This document shows positions 2,650 to 62,194 of a stretch of 64,000 bases of DNA, piece by piece (position 1 is the first letter of the stretch; every line of letters begins with the position of its first letter). A program made the translations under genes and the position numbers. The stretch is from Octopus sinensis (taxonomy: Eukaryota). Below the pieces are notes generated by a model. It worked only from the letters and a program-made list of their open reading frames with translations, was not told the origin of the DNA and searched no databases. The DNA lies in NCBI RefSeq assembly GCF_006345805.1, contig NC_043012.1, positions 20,398,001 through 20,462,000 on the forward strand, in the 5' to 3' direction.

Positions 2650-3445
2650 TACATGTTGTGATGGCTGATGCTGTGAGGCTAAATTTAATACTTAATCCCC
2701 CTCCTATCACATCCTTTTTCTTAGAAAAGATTTAAAAAGGAAGACATTTGATCGTGTGTTTCTGATCAGCTATAATGTGGGCTGGTTATGTTTCGGTCTT
2801 CTTTTTCGATTAATCTGAAAAATGAAGGCTTCCCAGCAGACAAATGTTAACATTAACTGAGAATGACCTCCGGGCAATATTGCAATACAAACCTGTAATC
2901 ATCAAATGAAGCCTCACCACACATCCGCAATATTTATGGTTATAAGACACATTGGAGAATGATATTTGCTGTTTTCTATTTATGCACAAAGTACAGAATA
3001 TCCGTAATTTGCACAACTTCAGTCATAAGTCTACCCATTCAGACGCTAAACAACATTGACAAATCTCTATGACCAAAAGTTATGTTTGGTTTCTGTATAT
3101 ATTCTCACGAGACGAAATGTATATTATCGTATTACATTTTTAATTTCTTTGTAATTTATATAACATGTGGTAACGGCATTGCGATGTGATGAGCATGTCT
3201 TGAATTACGATATCATCGGGACTGTTCTGCGTGCTGTATTGTTTTTGGTATGATAACATCTCTTAGGAAAACATACCAGTTACAAAATTGCGTCATAATC
3301 CGGGATTGGGGGAAGGCCTTTATATTCTTGTCTTTGCTATGGTTGTTACTATCATAACTTTCAACACAATATAGTTACAAGAGCAACGTAAACGTAGAAA
3401 TTGTTCACGATCTCTTCAGTTCAAATCAATATCCAATGCATGAAA

Positions 3446-3660
3446 GGCGGCGAACTGGCAGAAAATTTAGCACGCCGGGCGAAGTGCTTAGCAGTATTTC
3501 GTCTGTCTTTACCTTCTGAGTTCAAATTCCGCCGAGGTCGATTTTGCCTGTCATCATTTCGGTGTCGATAAATTAAGTACCAATTGCATACTGGCGCCGA
3601 TCTAAATGACTAGCCCCCTACCCCGAAATTTCGGGACTTGTACCTAGAGTAGAAAATAAT
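3446..3660 (+). mobile_element. SINE family A
   Basis: GGCGGCGAACTGGCAGAA head, GAGTTCAAATTCC B-box and the shared core. Confidence 0.85.
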
Positions 3661-3949
3661 ATGCAATACGTGGCTATCTTCCATGCAATAAATTTTGCCA
3701 GACGAGACGCTTCTTTCAAGGAGATGAACATTATAAGAATATGCAGTCTTGCATTTTAAAATGAAAATGAGAAGCATTTCTCTATGATTGTCTGAGAACA
3801 TGTTTCCCATGCAATCCACAAAAAAATGTCATAATCACCAATGGAATAGAACGAAAATCATACTGAATCAAGCAAAATAGAATTTACCTCGGCCATCTAC
3901 AACCATGCCCACATCATCATTACAAATACTTATTTCTTCATAGTCTGAG

Positions 3950-4874: not shown

Positions 4875-5085
4875 TTTCAAATTTTCCCACAAGTGCAGCC
4901 ATTTTGGGGAAGGGGATCAGGCTATGACATCGACCCCAGTGTTTTAATTGTACTTAATTTATCAACCCTGAAAGGATGAAAGGTAAAGTCGACCTCGACG
5001 GAAATTGAACTCAGAACGTAGCGACGGGCGAAATACCGCTACGCATTTAAGCCCGGCGCGTTAACGAGTCTGCCAGCTCGCCGCC
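4875..5085 (-). mobile_element. SINE family A
   Basis: Reverse complement of the family A head and core, ending TGCCAGCTCGCCGCC. Confidence 0.85.
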
Positions 5086-5115
5086 TTATCGACGATTGTA
5101 ATAATACTAATAATT

Positions 5116-5340
5116 ATAATCCTTTGTACTGTAGGCAGAAGGCCTAATAATAATAAAAATAATACTTTCTACTAAAGGTACAAGGCCTGACATTCTGAGG
5201 CACGGCACTAGTCAATTACAAGGACCCCGGTATTTTACTGGTACTAAATTTATCAACCTCAAAAGATGAAAAGCAAAGTCTACCTCGGCGGAATTTGATC
5301 TCAGAATATGCAGACGGACGAAATTCCGCTAAGTTTTGCC
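5116..5340 (-). mobile_element. SINE family A, 5'-truncated, duplicated 3' tail
   Basis: Core GATGAAAAGCAAAGTCTACCTCGGCGGAATTTGA. The tail segment ending AAGGCCT occurs twice. Confidence 0.75.
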
Positions 5341-6000
5341 ATTATTAAAAAAATACGTGAGCCGGTGCCGTCAAAAATGACGGCTAATTGTAGTCTTTTA
5401 TTTACAAATAAGGTATAAAATAAGGTACATAATAATCACACATACAAACATTCGCATACTTCCCTTGTACAAGCACACACGTACAGACATATACTCAAAA
5501 AGTGTTGAAACGCTGTTTGATTTTTCTTTTAAGCGTTGAACGAGCACCATCCCATTCCCATTGCAAATACACACTCGCACATACACACACACACACACAT
5601 AAACATTCACATAGCTCCTTTTTACATACACACACATATACTCACACAGAATTGAAACGCTGCTCTTTTCACCCCTTCCTTTGTTATTTCTCTATCACCC
5701 TTTCTTTTCTCTATTGCTGTTACTTTCACTCTCTCTGTGTCAAGGTTATTACTCTCACTACTTCTCCTTCAATGAATTCCTATTTTCTCCCCCTTTTCCT
5801 TCAATTATGCTACTCTTTCTCTTACTCCTCCGTAAATCTGGACTAAGTTATATATATATATAAATATCCATATCCATATCCATATACATATATATATATA
5901 TATATATAAAATATTATTCGAGACAAAACCACTATTTTGCAAAACAAACAAGGAAAGACTTAATCAATACATAAATTTTAATAAATAGTCAAAAAAACCG

Positions 6001-6043
6001 CCACTACAATCGTTTCTTGTCTTGATCGACAATCTTCAGGTGG
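6001..6043 (-). ncRNA. type I hammerhead ribozyme (inverted copy)
   Basis: Exact reverse complement of 6090-6132. Confidence 0.8.
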
Positions 6044-6089
6044 ACTCCAATAATTCAGTGTCATAATTTGACACTGAATTATTGGAAGT

Positions 6090-6132
6090 CCACCTGAAGA
6101 TTGTCGATCAAGACAAGAAACGATTGTAGTGG
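6090..6132 (+). ncRNA. type I hammerhead ribozyme
   Basis: Helix I CCAC/GTGG; core CTGAAGA (6094-6100); helix II TTGTC-gatcaa-GACAA; GAAA; helix III AC-gatt-GT; GUA triplet, predicted cleavage after 6128. Confidence 0.8.
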
Positions 6133-6304
6133 CGGTTTTTTTGACTATTTATTAAAATTTATGTATTGATTAAGTCTTTCCTTGTTTGTTTTGCAAAATA
6201 GTGGTTTTGTCTCGAATAATATTTTATAATATTTTACTATAAAATCGATTTAATCCTAAATCTGATTTTTTCCCTGTAAATTTGGATTTATTCCCTAATA
6301 TTTA

Positions 6305-6397
<93 letters not shown>

Positions 6398-6454
6398 GTA
6401 TACAGGCAAATATATAAAAACACTTCACTCATTTCTGTATTAGGAGATACCTAA

Positions 6455-6612
6455 GGCGGCGAACTGGCAGAATCGTTAGCACGCCGGGCAAAACGCATCG
6501 ACGTGTTTCGTCCGTCTTAACGTTCTCAGTTCAAATTCTACCAAGGTCCACTTTACCTTTCATCCTTTCGGGGGTCGATAAATTAAGTACCAGTGAAATA
6601 CTGAGGTCGATG
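6455..6612 (+). mobile_element. SINE family A, 3'-truncated
   Basis: Head, B-box and core CCTTTCATCCTTTCGGGGGTCGATAAATTAAGTACCAG. Confidence 0.85.
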
Positions 6613-8032: not shown

Positions 8033-8997
8033 TTTGCGTCCTTAAAAGATGGCCCATGTGTGTACAGTTGCTTCAAGTTGATGAATGAAGCAGTGAGTGG
8101 GAAAATGACCAGTTGACCGGTGGTGTTAGTTGAAAGATTTATACCTGGTAGTTATATCCAGTATCATAATTCATAACAAATAACGCTATTTGAGTCCGCT
8201 AGATAAGTCCCTTTGATTACAAATAAGGCCCTAGTTAAAAATTAAGGAGGCTCTTAAAAGTTTAAGTGCGATATACGATATAAATTTGGGTTACGTATAT
8301 AGGTATAATAATAAGTAAAGTGTTGTTATGTGTGACCAGGATTTACGACCCGTTAATATAGTTGATTACATTCTTAGTTTTACATTTATTTGTGAATTTA
8401 AAATACTTTATTAGCTGAATCGTCTAACCTCTGATTACCTCCTTTTGACCGCCCCTTACCAAATAGCACGATATAATATCATAGACTAAAAATATATTCA
8501 ATTTACTTCGACTAACTGAATTATTAATCTTAGATGCACGATGTACAACCGGAGCTACAATTCTCTTTAATATATTCACATTGAAGTTCGATCACTGACT
8601 AATATACTAATTGCTAGTGTTACCATTAGCACATATATGATTAAGCGGGTGATTTACCCTATTCTAGCCGAGTTGATTTGTTCTAATTATATTAGCGGGT
8701 TGTAAACACTGGCCACACATAACACCACTTTATTATACCGATTTACGTAACGGTACATCGCACTTAAACTTTTAAGAGGGTCCGTAATTTTTAACTATGG
8801 CATTATTTGTAATCATAGGGACTTATCTAACAGACTCACATAGCGTTATTTGTTATCATTAATGATACTGGATATTACTACCAGGTACAACTCTTTCAAA
8901 TAACACCGCCGGTTAACTGGTCATTTCCCCCTCTCACTGCTCCATACATCTACTTGAGGCAACTGTACACACACGTGACATCTTTAAAGGACGCAAA
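8033..8997. mobile_element. long-TIR fold-back (non-autonomous DNA transposon-like) element
   Basis: Arms ~8033-8363 and ~8685-8997 are imperfect reverse complements, starting TTTGCGTCC and ending GGACGCAAA. The ~320-bp spacer is non-coding and no TSD is seen. Confidence 0.7.
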
Positions 8998-15643: not shown

Positions 15644-16369
15644 ATACAGCATTGCAAATATTAGTATACTATATTATTATTATTCATCACTTGGTAATAC
15701 AAGTATTTTTATTAATATTGTTATTATGATATGTGACATCGTTATATAAAAAATCAATATTAGTATTAGAATTATATTACAGCTACGTAAATCACATCTA
15801 ACAAAATAACATCATATTTTCTTGGTTCTTTGTCACGTGACTCTTTTCGTGGCCAGTGTGTCATATCAAAGATGTTTATGCAATTAAATCCTAATCCTCT
15901 CTGACTCAACAAACCTACAATGAATGAACTTCGGGCCATGATATTTTCTACTTTAGTTTTCACAGAAAGTATATCTTGGACTTCCTTATCCAATGTGACC
16001 TTCTACTAATATAAGAATGGTGTGATTTTAGAGCGATATGCTTCTTATTTCTAGATCAATATCCCGAATCCAGAAACCCCTGTTAGCTAAGCGTACTTTT
16101 GTCATGTCTCCCCTTTACTTTTGATCTCTCTGTCTCTCTCTCTCTCTCCATCTCTTTCTCCTCTTTGACTGTGCTTTTCAATCTCCCTAACTCTGTTCCC
16201 TACGTAACTTGACTTGTATTATTCTTCCATATAGGCTTGACCACCAAGTCCGCAACCAATTCACATAATATGCAAGGCCAGTTCACATTGCCGTAGCGAG
16301 AGACTATTCTCTCTCGAAAGCACACCCGCCTCTCTTGCGGTTTGACCAGTTTTCTCATTTTGTTGGAAC

Positions 16370-16763
16370 CATGTGTGAGGTCTACTTTGAATGGCCTTCA
16401 CGTTCCCCTGACGTGACTAGCCCGGATTTTTTTCTTGTAGAGATACCTGAAAGAGAGGCCTTACGTCAACAACTGGAGAACCTGGTGCAACTGAAGGAGA
16501 ACATAAGGAAATCAGAGACGTGGAGTCTGATACTCTTGAGGGTTTTATGGTGCAAGTTTTGGAAAGAACATAGGCGTGCGTAGCCGAAAATGGCCTCCAT
16601 TTAAGCGATGTCATTTTTCATATGTAACAGTGTTGCGAAATTTGGCATGTGCATATTAATGTCCATTATGTTCTTTTTGTATCAAAATGTCATGCATTTA
16701 CTTGGAAAGGTAAGGAAGTTACTAAAAATTGAAACCCATCAGTGACTTTAGGGACAGCCTTTA
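16370..16763 (+). mobile_element. Tc1/mariner-superfamily transposase 3' fragment
   Basis: WPSRSPDVTSPDFFL matches the WPxRSPDLxPxDFFLW motif, followed by frameshifted YLKER and LKENIR. Ends in a degenerate TIR-like sequence. Confidence 0.7.
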
Positions 16764-17109
16764 CTTATGCCAATTACACTAGGAAAATTGGAACAATTCC
16801 TAGAAAGAAACGTGAATGAAAACAATTTCCATAACATAATCCTTCGTTTATTTTCTTTGATATTCCTTATAGGATTTGTATGAAATACGTACTCTAGCTC
16901 ATGGCCTTCGCGGGAAATAGTGAGATTTACGTAGCCATGCATTTACTTGCAAAGTCGACACTGCTGCAAGGAAAAAAATCCTGCCCAGGCACAAAAGCAT
17001 GTTGGCAATACAAGATGCAGGTAAATCGGAACGATGCGAAAAGATGTTGCACGGGATCCGACAACTTGGAGTAGTGGAATGTAATGTAGTAGAAATAGAT
17101 AATTAGTAA

Positions 17110-17340
17110 GGCGGCGAGCTGGCAGAAACGTTAGCACACCGGGCGAAATGCTTGGCAGTATTTCGTCTGGCGTTACGTTCTGACCGAGTTTGACTTTGCC
17201 TTTCATCCTTTCGGGATCGATAAATTAAGTACCAATTACGCACTGAGCTCGATGTAATCGACTTAATCCCTTTGTCTGTCCTTGTTTGTACCCTCTATGT
17301 TTATTCCCTTGTGGGCAATAAAGAAATAAGAAATAAATAA
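17110..17340 (+). mobile_element. SINE family A
   Basis: GGCGGCGAGCTGGCAGAAACGTTAGC head, core, and tail CCCTTTGTCTGTCCTTGTTTG...AATAAAGAAATAA. Confidence 0.9.
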
Positions 17341-30941: not shown

Positions 30942-32110
30942 ATATATATATATGTGTGTATGTATATATATACATACACACACACATGCACATTATTTTT
31001 ATGCGCGTAAAATATATATGACGCATATCCTCAGCTAGATTTGAAATATTACAGTTTTTCCTAACCTCCCATCCCCGTCATCAGCCATTGTAAGAAAGTA
31101 CATCTAGATATTTTTTCCCTCGCGTAGCTGAAATAGGAAAGAAACGGATTACTGGAACAATAGTTTCCGATTGCATTAGGAGGGCAATTAACGGCAAAAC
31201 TAGTAGCTAGTAGTCCCTTAACTATTCATTCATTGTCAAAGGACTTTCAGCATTATTCAAAGTTACAAAGAAACGCGTGTGTGCGTGTGTGTCTGTGTCT
31301 CTGTATGTCTTTGTGGGCGGTGAAACACAAATATGTACTTCTGAGCAAATTAATTTTTTTTTATATTTAGAATAAAATATATAATTCGAAAGCTTTGTTG
31401 TGAAGTATTTGTTATCTGTGCATTTTATGCGTTTGTAATCAACAATTTTGCTGAATCATCTATTGCTATTATTTTGAAGAAGAATACCAATTTTATAACA
31501 GTGTTTCAGTCATATTGGATAAAATTCAATAACAATTTTTATTTGAATTTCATAGCAGCCCGCATTCTTCTCATCAATACTATTGTTCCTTTTCCAAATA
31601 TTTATATTTTATTGTGTTATTTTCGATAGAAATCACCAACAATATGTCATTATAATATACTTCGGTACACTTCCGGTATCTTTGATTTGTTCCGACGCGA
31701 GGAAAATATAAGCGATTTTGGTATCCAAATATTTCTTTTAAGGAGACAAAAAGCGTTAATATTGAAAAAGATAATGTCAGTGTAACAATGATTTGCTATC
31801 TGAGATATATGAGATGTAAAGAAAGAAAATTGAATTATAGACATAAAATCATTAATGATAGATGGAGGATGTGATACAGTCTGTCAATGTAACAATAGCA
31901 TAACTATATATTAGGGTATATTAATACATACACTCACACGTATCTCCACAAATATATATGAATTAGTATATTGAAATATATATGCATGTGTCTGTGTAAT
32001 ATTGCATACAAAAGTGATACTACTTAATATATAGTTAATATCAGCGAGCAATATGTCCATATATAATGTGTATAATTGTTTTTTATCGTATGTATATATA
32101 TATATATATA

Positions 32111-32427
32111 TATATAGTGGTCGTATACTGTCAACATATATAATATATATATATATATTACTTATATTAAGGGCATTACTATACATAAATGCCTCAAACT
32201 AGGAGGGACTCTTAAAGTAAAAAACAACCATAATATGTTTATTATGGTAGATTTTGATTTTAAGAGTCCCTCCTAGCATGAGGCATTTATGTAAAGTAAT
32301 GCCCTTAATATAAATAAATATATTTAAAGGGAATAATTAATAATTTTTTTCTTTATGAAATGTTTCACACTAACTACTTGATAATTTCTTATAAAGATTT
32401 TATCCTATTTTTAAACATATATATATA

Positions 32428-32518
<91 letters not shown>

Positions 32519-32554
32519 TATATATATAGATATATATAATATATATATAATATA

Positions 32555-32602
<48 letters not shown>

Positions 32603-33186
32603 TATATATATGTATATATGTTTAAAAATAGGATAAAATCTTTATAAGAATTTATCAAGTAGTTAGTGTGAAACATTTCATAAAGAAAAAATTATTAATT
32701 ATTCCCTTTAAATATATTTATTTATATTAAGGGCATTACTTTACATAAATGCTTCATGCTAGGAGGGACTCGTAAAATCAAAATCTACCATAATAAACAT
32801 ATGGTTGTATTTTACTTTAAGAGTCCCTCTTAGTTTGAGGGATTTATGTATAGTAATGCCCTTAATATAAGTAATATATATACATATATATGTTGACAGT
32901 ATACGAACGCTATATATATATATGTCGTTATTCTACAGTTTATATAAGTTATGGTTATTATTTGGGTAGGGGTTTACTTAATCTTTGACAGTTTATTGTT
33001 ATTTTAATGTTAATATTTTTAATATAGGTAATTTTTGGGATGGTGTAATTTAATTGTTCATTTTGAATTAATAAAATGTGTTTTTTTTTCTAATTTTCTA
33101 TATATATATTATATTGTGTGAAATTTGATTTAATTTCATTGATTTTTTTCCGTGTAAGTTTTGGATTTTATTCCCTCAAATATTAA

Positions 33187-38876: not shown

Positions 38877-39680
<804 letters not shown>

Positions 39681-39694
<14 letters not shown>

Positions 39695-39818
39695 ATTATA
39701 TTACGTTATATTATATTATATTATATTATATTATATTATATTATATTATATTATATTATATTATATTATATTATATTATATTATATTATATTATATTATA
39801 TTATATTATATTATATTA
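39681..39818. repeat. (TTATA)n pentanucleotide repeat
   Basis: Seen directly. Confidence 0.95.
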
Positions 39819-42724: not shown

Positions 42725-42895
42725 AATTAATTTTATGTATTGGCTTATGTTTTTCATTGTTTGATTTGCCTAATAGCGGTTTTATCTCTAATTTAATATA
42801 ATATAATATATTTATACTATAAAATTGAATTTAATCCTAAATCTGATTTTTCCCTATAAGTTTGGATTTATTCCCTAATATTTTATTATTAATTA
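42725..42895 (+). mobile_element. 5'-truncated copy of the 6-kb element (tail only, no ribozyme)
   Basis: Colinear with 6150-6310 (TTTATGTATTG...TTTAATCCTAAATCTGATTTTTCCCT...TTTGGATTTATTCCCTAATA), followed by (TA)n. Confidence 0.8.
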
Positions 42896-42921
42896 TATAT
42901 ATATAGATATATATATATATA

Positions 42922-48893: not shown

Positions 48894-49157
48894 TATTATG
48901 CTAAAGTGTCGTAAGTCGAAAATGTTGCTTTTTCAGAAAACGAAAAGATAATTTTACCATTCCATAGCAAAACCGTTGTACTACACTTTGACAATCTTTG
49001 AGACCGTAGCATTTGAGCAGCTGGAGATACGATAACTTGACCGAAAGTACCAGCTATTGCAAGTAAATATAAACATAGTAAACAACACAGTTGGCCCAAT
49101 TGGGACGTACAATAGTTTAATATAATGGCAAGGATATATAATATATTATATATATAT

Positions 49158-49222
<65 letters not shown>

Positions 49223-49356
49223 TTCAGCAACAATTTAGATTCAAATGAATATGGTACTTAATTTAGATGCACCAGAATTTTGATGGTGGTACCCATAAAA
49301 AAAATGCGGGGTGATTATAATCAAAGAATAAAAAGCAACAAGATTGAATCCGGTAC

Positions 49357-49444
49357 TTTAGTACAATTGTTTCATACTACAACATTTTATTAAAAGCTGT
49401 AAATATTACAGCAGATTTAAGATGCTGAGTAATCTTCAGCTAAA
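49357..49444 (-). ncRNA. type I hammerhead ribozyme (inverted copy)
   Basis: Reverse complement of the 49.7-kb motif; helix I TTTAG/CTAAA. Confidence 0.75.
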
Positions 49445-49657
49445 TTTTATATAGGTTTTCCAATAATATAAAGTTTTCAAATCAATTAATAACATCTTAG
49501 GGAAGGTAAATATACAGATAAAGATGTAGACATGAGTTGTAACCGAGGTTTTGGTCAGTTAGCATCTGAACTACACGACCTCATGTTCCTAACATTCATA
49601 TCTACATCTTTATCTGTATATTTACCTTCCCTAAGATGTTATTAGTTCATTTGATAA

Positions 49658-49749
49658 AATTTAGCTGAAGATTACTCAGCATCTTAAATCTGCTGTAATA
49701 TTTACAGCTTTTAATAAAATGTTGTAGTATGAAACAATTGTACTAAATT
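49658..49749 (+). ncRNA. type I hammerhead ribozyme with extended helix II
   Basis: Helix I AATTTAG/CTAAATT; CTGAAGA (49665-49671); helix II TACT/AGTA, CAGCAT/ATGTTG and GCTGTAA/TTACAGC; GAAA (49731-49734); palindromic ACAATTGT; GUA, predicted cleavage after 49742. The first helix II pair is U-U. Confidence 0.8.
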
Positions 49750-49779
49750 ACCGGATCTATTCTTGTTGCTTATTATTCT

Positions 49780-49812
<33 letters not shown>

Positions 49813-50352: not shown

Positions 50353-50807
50353 TTAGGTTTTCATATTTGAAACGTTGCATTTTAATTACTTATATCACTC
50401 ATTTAAAAACTGGAAGCTAGTGAGTGGAGGTGACTCAACTTTGTCCCACGACAATGCAACCCTTACACTTCTCAAGCTACGGTCCAAAATGATGCAACAC
50501 CTGAGTTATGAAATTTTGAAACATCCCCCCTATTCCCCTGATATCTCTTCTACTGATTGTCACTTATTTAAGCATTTGGAGCTTTTCATACGCAAGAAAT
50601 CATGTTTAAATAGAGAAGAGCTAATTGAAGCATACGGACAGTTTATCACAGCAAAAGATGAATCTTGATTTTAAAGATGGAATATATGACTTAGAGAAAT
50701 GTTAAGTAAATGTCATAAAAGAATTTAGATCACACTTGGATAAAATAAATCAGTTCTCTAACACGTCTGAATCATTTTATTGCTACCTTCCAAATATGAC
50801 AACCTAA
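50353..50807 (+). mobile_element. internally deleted mariner transposon
   Basis: TIRs TTAGGTTTTCATATTTG / CAAATATGACAACCTAA with flanking TA. Translation includes HDNA...HPPYSPDISSTDCHLF. Confidence 0.88.
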
Positions 50808-50836
50808 TATATATAATAAAAATAATATCCGCACAT

Positions 50837-50878
50837 ATATTCACGCATAAATATATATATATATTTATGCGTGAATAT
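50837..50878. repeat. perfect 42-bp palindrome centred on (TA)n
   Basis: ATATTCACGCATAAATATATA|TATATATTTATGCGTGAATAT, with imperfect extension to 50819-50896. Confidence 0.9.
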
Positions 50879-52134
50879 TTGTGAACATATTATTTTCATT
50901 TTTGCGTTTTACCATAGCAGAGGAAACACCACAATACCCAGTTGCTAGAACCAAATTACAATTATGTGAAATATTTCTCAGCATAGGCAGTAACTTAACC
51001 GTTCCAATGACTTCAAATCATTCGCTAGTACTTCAATAATCTACGATAACTGGAGATCTACACATGCTTCCTCGGGGCATCAGTTGTGGTACATAGTGTT
51101 TCTGATATTGCACATGGTATGCAACTACTTTCTATTTTAATAGGCAATTACTTTATCAACCGTTATTGCCGAAGTAGTGATGACCTGTGATGTTTACTTT
51201 AGCTGCTAGGGGAAATTTCCAAGATAGACCTGTTAATTCATTATTCGATGTAACATCTACACTGAAAACAAAGTGATATTCAGACTGCACACCCCCAGAA
51301 ACACTCTGCAATCTGCTTAAGACTAGCGAATGTCTTCAAAGCAATGATAAAGAAAAATGATATTTTCTGTAGCTGTTGAAATAGCTTCTATCCAATACAT
51401 ACACACACGCATATACACACATAGATATGTATGTACACACACACATATAGACATGTGCGTATGTGTGTTCTCTAGTATTTATTAATAATATTGATATATG
51501 GGGTAACGCCACACACCGATATAATCAGATGTCCTTTAATAAATGTCCATGAGCATTTCCGTTATGTATTCGCTGAAATGATCCGATGTAATAATATCTG
51601 AAGCAACCGGACAGTTGCCAGGTGTGCCAAATATTTAATGCTGTATCGTTACTGTTCACATATGTGAATATATACGTATATTCATGCAGACATTTGATTA
51701 TATGCACAAGAGTGTTATCATTCCACATAGCACTATCTGCAAACTATACATATTTATCGTTTTCGAGACACGATATCATAATAAATTACAAATACATGAA
51801 ATGATAGGAATACTAAACCAGACAAAAACAAAAGAAATTCTGATAAGAAAACAATAGCATTCATGTTTTCTTTTTTTATCTGACACCAGAATTCTTGCAC
51901 ACCTTGGAAGAAACAGACACACTTACAAACTTACAAATATACATACAGAAGAACACATGAATGTATATTCATATACACATAACAACATAGAAGAATATTT
52001 GGCAAAACTTAACAGTTGAATAACAAGGAAGCGACAAGCCAAATGGTATTCATGCATGTGATTACTGCTAAACTAGAAATAAGTAGCCTAAATATTGAAA
52101 TGCTTGCTGGTCTCTACATGTCTCTCCCCCTCTC

Positions 52135-58523: not shown

Positions 58524-58889
58524 TACATATATTTGTAGAGTTTACAATTTAAAGGAAAAATCCAGGGGAATAATTACAAGGTACCGATATATTGCTTTGT
58601 GTGTGTGTACGTCTGTGTGCATCTGAATGTAAGTACGTTGCATTTCTGTTAACACGTCTGTTTGTTATTATATCCTTCCTGATGAGATTGATGCCTTGGT
58701 GACCAGAATTTATGCTGTCAGACATTTTTGAATGCATTCGTCGAAACATATGTAGAAGAATTCAAGATATAAACGGTTTAACAACATTACGAGAGTTAGT
58801 CTCCTTGTTCAATTACCCTATGTACATATATGTGAATGTGTGACTGTGTGTTTGTGTATATTTGTTTGATTGTTTGTGTGTGTGTGTGT

Positions 58890-62009: not shown

Positions 62010-62194
62010 AGAAACGTTAGGACGCCGGGTGAAATGTGTAGCCGTATTTCGTCTGTTGTTACGTTCCGAGTTCAAATTCCGCCGAGGTCGACTTTGCCTT
62101 TCATCCTTTCGAGGTCGATGTAATCGACTTAATCCCTTTGTCTGTCCTTGTTTGTCCCCTCTGTGTTTAGTCCCTTGTGGGTTGTAAAGAAATA
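62010..62194 (+). mobile_element. SINE family A with internal deletion
   Basis: GAGTTCAAATTCCGCCGAGGTCGACTTTGCCTTTCATCCTTTCG, with the same tail as 17110-17340. Confidence 0.85.

Follow-up and report, generated by a model that had tools for sequence, protein, structure and literature searches.

A complete type I hammerhead ribozyme core is present in two copies, on the plus strand at 49658-49749 and on the minus strand at 49357-49444, in the stretch of Octopus sinensis DNA analyzed here (the window; 64 kb of contig NC_043012.1). The two copies, which share a 59-nt helix II, form the opposing arms of a single fold-back inserted in (TA)n. This fold-back of two repeat copies is probably a 5'-truncated pLTR of a Penelope-like element (PLE) of the Hydra-clade type, with hammerheads predicted to cleave mainly as dimers. 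The system is not of a new kind: published work already covers this class of ribozyme, cleavage as a dimer, a U·U pair at the base of helix II, and the inverted layout. The novelty lies in a helix II of 59 nt carried by a high-copy family, in a second family of the window with a long helix II, and in an unrelated case on a metagenome contig (L027). The coordinates are collected in Table 1.

Table 1. Features of the two hammerhead-bearing fold-back insertions and of the single hammerhead in the window
Feature	Position	Strand	Basis
(TA)n tract bordering the left arm at its 3' end (likely target)	49134-49220	.	Sequence; one run-X5 contig joins (TA)n here
3' tail, ~100 nt, left arm only	49221-49322	-	Arm alignment; three diverged contigs
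Left arm, 5'-truncated element end; 27 nt of it missing from the right arm	49323-49551	-	Inverted-repeat analysis
Left hammerhead copy, 5-bp helix I, predicted cut after 49362	49357-49444	-	Descriptor scan
Fold-back center, junction of two truncated 5' ends	49552-49574	.	Arm alignment, folding
Right arm, 5'-truncated element end	49575-49782	+	Inverted-repeat analysis
Right hammerhead copy, helix I 5' strand	49658-49664	+	Descriptor scan; 7 bp with 49743-49749
Right copy, core C3-A9, CUGAAGA (DNA CTGAAGA)	49665-49671	+	Descriptor scan, copy variants
Right copy, long helix II, 59 nt	49672-49730	+	Descriptor scan and fold prediction
Right copy, GAA; palindrome; A17	49731-49733; 49734-49741; 49742	+	Descriptor scan, folding
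Right copy, helix I 3' strand	49743-49749	+	Descriptor scan
(TA)n tract bordering the right arm at its 3' end	49783-49812	.	Sequence
Second fold-back in (TA)n, 98% perfect, one-sided tail of ~80 nt	5907-6310	.	Inverted-repeat analysis
Short-helix-II (16 nt) hammerheads of the second fold-back	6001-6043; 6090-6132	-; +	Descriptor scan
Single unrelated hammerhead, 57-nt helix II, G-C base, palindrome ACATATGT	58675-58758	+	Descriptor scan

The plus-strand copy has the type I form, in which the CUGANGA core, GAAA, and NUH are joined by three helices and helix I is open. Its helix III is the perfect 8-nt palindrome ACAATTGT, and cleavage is predicted after position 49742, at the triplet GUA. The left and right copies are identical in core and helix II. 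The 7-bp helix I given in the preliminary description of this locus holds for the right copy; the left copy has 5 bp only, because of one substitution at 49356, where the base that re-extends the helix accounts for 67 to 89% of depth in related contigs. With the complete core found in both copies, the proposed hammerhead pair with a very long helix II and a palindromic helix III was confirmed, with the qualification that the members of the "pair" are inverted duplicates, one on each strand, and not two ribozymes on one RNA. Because the copies lie on opposite strands, they form no dimer in cis, and a cis dimer of the two was accordingly ruled out.

Helix II of the right copy is predicted to comprise a U·U base, 4 bp, a bulged U, 6 bp, a weak middle, and a 7-bp hairpin. 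Folded over 57 nt, the helix II hairpin reaches -14.6 kcal/mol (z = -3.63; 3 of 200 shuffles were as good), with pair probabilities of 0.88 to 1.0 in the outer (4 + 6 bp) and inner (7 bp) stems and of 0.56 at the loop-closing pair. The outer (TACT/AGTA and CAGCAT/ATGTTG) and inner (GCTGTAA/TTACAGC) segments of the stacked stem drawn earlier are thus retained, but its middle segment, TTAAA/TTTAA, is absent from the best fold, and the earlier pairing comes to -14.8 kcal/mol versus -16.0 kcal/mol for the best one. The U·U pair had been suspected of lowering activity, a view that we do not share: it is the commonest form in Hydra-clade PLEs, where, of the 25 families for which Craig et al. (2021, PMC8557442) give a hammerhead row, 14 by our own count have a U·U mismatch at the helix II base; an axolotl hammerhead with U·U cleaves; and U·U is described as the best-tolerated mismatch at this position (PMC3088659). 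Two further structures were considered and rejected. A kissing contact between AAUAUU palindromes at the helix II tip is not supported, given a loop variant at 49403 that breaks AAUAUU and reaches 25 to 71% of depth; nor is a conserved switch between two competing hairpins supported, given variants at 49425 and 49360 that, as read by eye, would disrupt both hairpins.

A descriptor scan of both strands of the window returned 5 matches belonging to 3 independent families, against a mean of 0.03 and a maximum of 1 in 100 shuffles; a relaxed descriptor returned the same 5 matches, with a shuffle mean of 0.08. In addition, a general core pattern (fixed core with a 45- to 75-nt gap) was combined with a filter demanding at least 4 bp in helix I and at least 3 bp at the base of helix II. 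All three window matches of this pattern passed the filter; among the background matches listed (at least 120 loci in each set), 1 of 121 from metagenomes passed and none of 120 from viruses. That the hammerhead is a chance match in AT-rich DNA is hardly conceivable given 5 matches versus 0.03 expected, the single pass among 241 background matches listed, and a core spared by the variants described below (40 of 64 substitution rows listed). What speaks for chance is the composition of the window, which is AT-rich (~33% G+C) with many microsatellites, the modest folding z-scores of the whole motif (-1.3 to -2.2), and the lack of a hammerhead match in Rfam. Rfam gave no match at the gathering score over the 64 kb and, at the hammerhead loci with E values up to 10, only generic hairpin matches and no hammerhead. 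The short-helix hammerhead pair at 6001/6090 is missed by Rfam as well, and its silence is therefore not specific to a long helix II. The exact 20-nt pattern of the 49357-49749 family had no match in metagenomes.

It had further been suggested that a helix II of this length would escape length-limited motif searches. The descriptor of Cervera and de la Pena (PMC4209133), with a stem II of 3 to 7 bp and a loop of 3 to 10 nt, would indeed not return a motif with a 59-nt helix II, and the search described by Craig et al. (PMC8557442) uses spacers of 7 to 17 nt, with 35 to 50 nt noted, so that both published limits fall short of the present length. Length is not the sole cause of a miss, however, because the Cervera descriptor also fails on helix III and Rfam misses a pair with a short helix.

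The arms of the fold-back pair 49316-49450 with 49654-49788 and 49474-49535 with 49596-49657, each at 94% complementarity, and meet near 49563. The predicted cut lies 40 nt from the arm end in the right arm and 141 nt from it in the left arm. The tail that extends the left arm is assigned to the element because three diverged contigs bridge tail and hammerhead. One part of the tail, 49235-49286, has roughly 50 to 800 times the contig depth of the tail middle (49287-49338), with different continuations on either side; these ~50 nt are common to a far more abundant repeat. In one run-X5 contig, the same part runs on the plus strand into another CUGAAGA; such contig joints rest on single contigs and were not used as evidence. 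An RNA reading through the fold-back is predicted to form a hairpin of ~200 bp (-292 kcal/mol), and the locus would possibly be a source of double-stranded RNA.

Long inverted arms and a TA-rich target are also what a MITE-like fold-back DNA element with long terminal inverted repeats would present, the hammerhead being a passenger gained once and no longer selected, and inverted repeats free of hammerheads are likewise found in the window (8033-8997 and 32104-32923). We nevertheless regard a DNA element as very unlikely: the ends are unequal, with the tail on one side; the unrelated hammerhead family at 5907-6310 has the same layout; and the listed variants avoid the core (40 of 64 rows listed), consistent with selection at the RNA level. 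The layout instead matches that of EN+ PLEs, with a hammerhead near the 3' end, 5' truncation, an inverted truncated copy, and a one-sided tail. For PLEs, Craig et al. (PMC8557442) report copies truncated at the 5' end, truncated copies in inverted orientation, and a tail on one side only, and opposite-strand PLE hammerhead pairs lying 100 to 700 bp apart are described by Cervera and de la Pena (2014, PMC4209133). The tail is longer here, ~100 nt as opposed to the 30 to 40 bp given for PLEs (PMC8557442).

Within the PLEs, the (TA)n target, the U·U base, and the distance to the end match traits of the Hydra clade that are typical of it and not exclusive to it. In the supplement of Craig et al. 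(PMC8557442), (TA)n is the target in 25 of 27 listed Hydra-clade families, and the distance from cut to end ranges from 29 to 354 nt, with a median of 78 nt, in 24 families (one 5' row left out); in most families, tens to ~150 nt separate the cut from the 3' end. The Hydra-clade hammerheads described there are also of type I and have a short self-complementary helix III, and an inverted truncated copy is noted in one family. Neptune and Naiad elements likewise favor microsatellites (PMC8557442). Where the present motif departs from the clade is in the span of helix II, ~11 to 25 nt in the listed Hydra-clade rows versus 59 nt. Short motifs of the element are absent from the text of the same supplement, in which line breaks could hide a match. 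PLE membership and clade were assigned from the layout and the form of the motif, because no reverse transcriptase (RT) or GIY-YIG frame adjoins: none lies ~110 to 200 nt upstream of the hammerheads of the truncated copies, and none was seen by eye among 89 frames. With no ORF found, the clade of the element is one that we infer.

No coding frame was recognized by eye beside any of the three hammerhead families in the window. This and the high copy number of the 49357-49749 repeat would also suit a short non-autonomous element derived from a pLTR (retrozyme-like or SINE-like) that spreads through self-cut RNA, as opposed to a truncated protein-coding PLE; retrozymes of animals have been described as derived from pLTRs and as frequently occurring in monomeric form (bioRxiv 10.64898/2026.07.22.740005). 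We consider such an element unlikely, since the locus contains no head-to-tail repeat, the motif is without the canonical 4-bp helix II with a short loop, and the pattern of truncated copies in inverted orientation with a tail on one side is that of PLE insertions (PMC8557442).

The closest published hammerheads differ from the present one in helix II, among other features. The PLE hammerheads of Cervera and de la Pena (PMC4209133) are similar in their palindromic helix III, their predicted activity as dimers, and their occurrence mostly as single or truncated copies, but in the 56-row alignment of that study helix II does not exceed 8 bp and its loop ~10 nt, as opposed to a span of 59 nt here, and the consensus has G10.1-C11.1 where the octopus element has the U·U of the Hydra clade. 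PLE-X1_sMoe of spike moss has a helix II span of 54 nt, composed of a 9-bp stem and a 35-nt loop (File S2, PMC8557442). It is marked there as deviating from the canonical form, belongs to a plant PLE without endonuclease in rDNA, and has a row without a palindromic helix III, whereas the palindrome is present in the octopus motif. HHR_Amex2, from the axolotl non-LTR retrozymes (PMC7229834), shares the type I form, the U·U base, and better activity as a dimer; it has a 2-bp helix III with a tetraloop, and 22% of the monomer cleaves and more of the dimer. In contrast to the octopus element, it is described as arranged in tandem repeats of ~350 bp, with a loop 1-loop 2 contact and a short helix II (PMC7229834). 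Among viral hammerheads, the term "long helix II" is used for 6 to 8 bp (PMC13725137). No metazoan family with a comparably long helix II appeared in the literature searched; PLE surveys beyond that search could contain cases.

A Naiad origin was rejected, because the 3' ends of the octopus Naiad elements in the supplement of Craig et al. (PMC8557442) are by eye unlike this element, and 11 short motifs of the window elements had no relevant match in that text, although line breaks may hide one. In the 3' ends of Naiad_Obim and Naiad_Ovul (PMC8557442), hammerhead parts can be made out by eye in a shuffled order, with a helix II of ~2 bp: the cleavage triplet and one helix I strand come first, GAAAC follows, and the other helix I strand with CUGAUGA comes last. 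Judging by this order, these ends are possibly a non-circular permutation.

The 49357-49749 repeat belongs to a multi-copy family, because hundreds of diverged contigs match it in each of three large runs. Part of the stretch is contained in 20 of 24 sequencing runs, from three organisms, and positions 49222-49595 are matched by 1361, 1055, 723, and 57 contigs in four runs of the three organisms (80 to 100% alike, at a matching threshold of 80% likeness, depth not being equal to copy number). The variants analyzed are the 40 of 64 substitution rows listed, 15 of them inside the hammerhead; the variants are unlinked, and indels were excluded. None of these 15 substitutions falls at the 17 core or palindrome positions (P = 0.02 to 0.03), and N7 is the single core position with a listed variant, varying in 2 to 65% of depth. 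Three of the 15 listed substitutions break a pair, and the other twelve are tolerated (permutation P = 0.001). Two pairs change in both partners, one in helix I (A-U to G-C) and one in the distal part of helix II (C-G to U-A). For helix II taken by itself, 8 of 11 listed variants are tolerated (P = 0.10), and the one pair changed on both sides has a P value of 0.40, again with unlinked variants; a pair-breaking helix II change at 49382 makes up 51 to 76% of depth in three of the four runs. In a subfamily represented by 5 contigs each in runs X4 and X9, three adjacent changes in the 5' strand can, by eye, still pair with the 3' strand of the 49357-49749 copy. The expectation that related copies would preserve the core and the pairing was thus upheld for the core and palindrome, which are free of listed variants, while compensatory change in the long helix is suggestive, short of significance for helix II by itself. 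On this pattern of substitutions, the hammerhead core looks to be under selection, and it is plausible that the long helix II is a conserved structure.

The 8-nt palindrome gives a monomer a helix III of only 2 bp. The active fold of the monomer was computed at -15.8 kcal/mol versus -17.6 kcal/mol for the best fold, which hides the core in two hairpins. The active dimer reaches -42.8 kcal/mol versus -35.2 kcal/mol for two best monomers and -31.6 kcal/mol for two active monomers, and an inactive dimer is predicted at -43.3 kcal/mol; these computed energies exclude the tertiary contacts of the core. The palindrome and the favorable predicted dimer energy support the earlier assignment to the minimal hammerheads that cleave as dimers through a palindromic helix III. 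It is nonetheless a tentative possibility deserving some weight that the core is real and the long helix II a neutral expansion through which the ribozyme of this family has lost all or nearly all of its activity. The competing hairpins of the best monomer fold, the nonsignificant covariation of helix II by itself, and the U·U at its base are in keeping with such an expansion. The active fold, however, is a mere 1.8 kcal/mol away in the monomer and 0.5 kcal/mol in the dimer, no listed variant falls in the core or palindrome (40 of 64 rows listed), and long helices occur in two unrelated sequences, the hammerhead at 58675 and that of L027. A neutral expansion concerns activity and is compatible with a PLE origin.

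For a truncated PLE, the locus could have formed as follows. Two hammerheads on the same strand of the parent element, either in tandem copies or on two separate RNAs, would pair their palindromes into an 8-bp helix III and, so paired, would cut the parent transcript after GUA; the long helix II would extend loop 2 without disturbing the core. Reverse transcription primed at (TA)n would have begun at either of two sites, lying 40 nt and 141 nt beyond the cut, and its early stop would have left two truncated copies joined at their 5' ends. In an anole PLE, the tail has been tied to two start sites of reverse transcription by Frangione et al. (PMC11167929), who also describe a PLE hammerhead that requires the protein of the element for cutting and a cut that is dispensable for insertion in vitro. 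PLE hammerheads are reported to be slow, with low activity in vitro (PMC4209133). The octopus locus itself is likely a relic, because its copies face opposite ways and the read-through hairpin buries the ribozyme.

The second fold-back of the window, at 5907-6310, belongs to a family unrelated to that at 49357-49749 and repeats its layout of a fold-back in (TA)n with a one-sided tail. A piece of the 3' end of this element recurs at 42729-42921 (85%). The single hammerhead at 58675-58758 is the more weakly folded of the two long-helix families, its long stem reaching -7.4 kcal/mol versus -8.1 kcal/mol for the best fold; it is perhaps a decayed copy. It lies ~150 nt after a (GATA)n tract. The metagenome contig L027 (393 bases) contains, at 296-383 on the minus strand, a complete hammerhead with a 59-nt helix II (-20.6 kcal/mol), a 5-bp helix I, an extra U followed by G-C, and a palindromic helix III; it is unrelated to the 49357-49749 family.

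Several other repeats were noted in the window. Inverted repeats without a hammerhead match lie at 8033-8997, 32104-32923, and 50815-50900, and in the second of these (TA)n both flanks the repeat and occupies its center, while each arm contains an inner hairpin. A dispersed repeat of 100 to 200 nt, with copies 72 to 85% alike at 408-612, 3444-3662, 4889-5331, 6452-6612, 17107-17332, and 62010-62194, is SINE-like in size and spread. A near-tandem duplication of ~490 nt (95% identity) occupies 38877-39806. Finally, frames at 50357-50668 (+) and 16269-16583 (+) contain YSPD-like motifs and are reminiscent of Tc1/mariner transposase remnants.

Two of the three hammerhead families in the window have a helix II longer than either of the two published searches checked would allow, which marks a blind spot of such searches. 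We think it doubtful, but worth stating, that hammerheads with a long helix II make up a recurring class of active retroelement ribozymes that has stayed hidden, the extra 40 nt being a selected domain. If they are, a long helix II would have arisen more than once (in the 49357-49749 family, at 58675, in L027, and in PLE-X1_sMoe), and the extra 40 nt might be, for example, a docking stem for the reverse transcriptase of the element or a switch between an inactive monomer and an active dimer. Hammerhead counts in animal genomes, and some statements that a hammerhead is absent, would then be too low, because the search patterns cap helix II. A high-copy family that keeps the core while bearing 40 extra structured bases offers a natural test of why PLEs retain the ribozyme.
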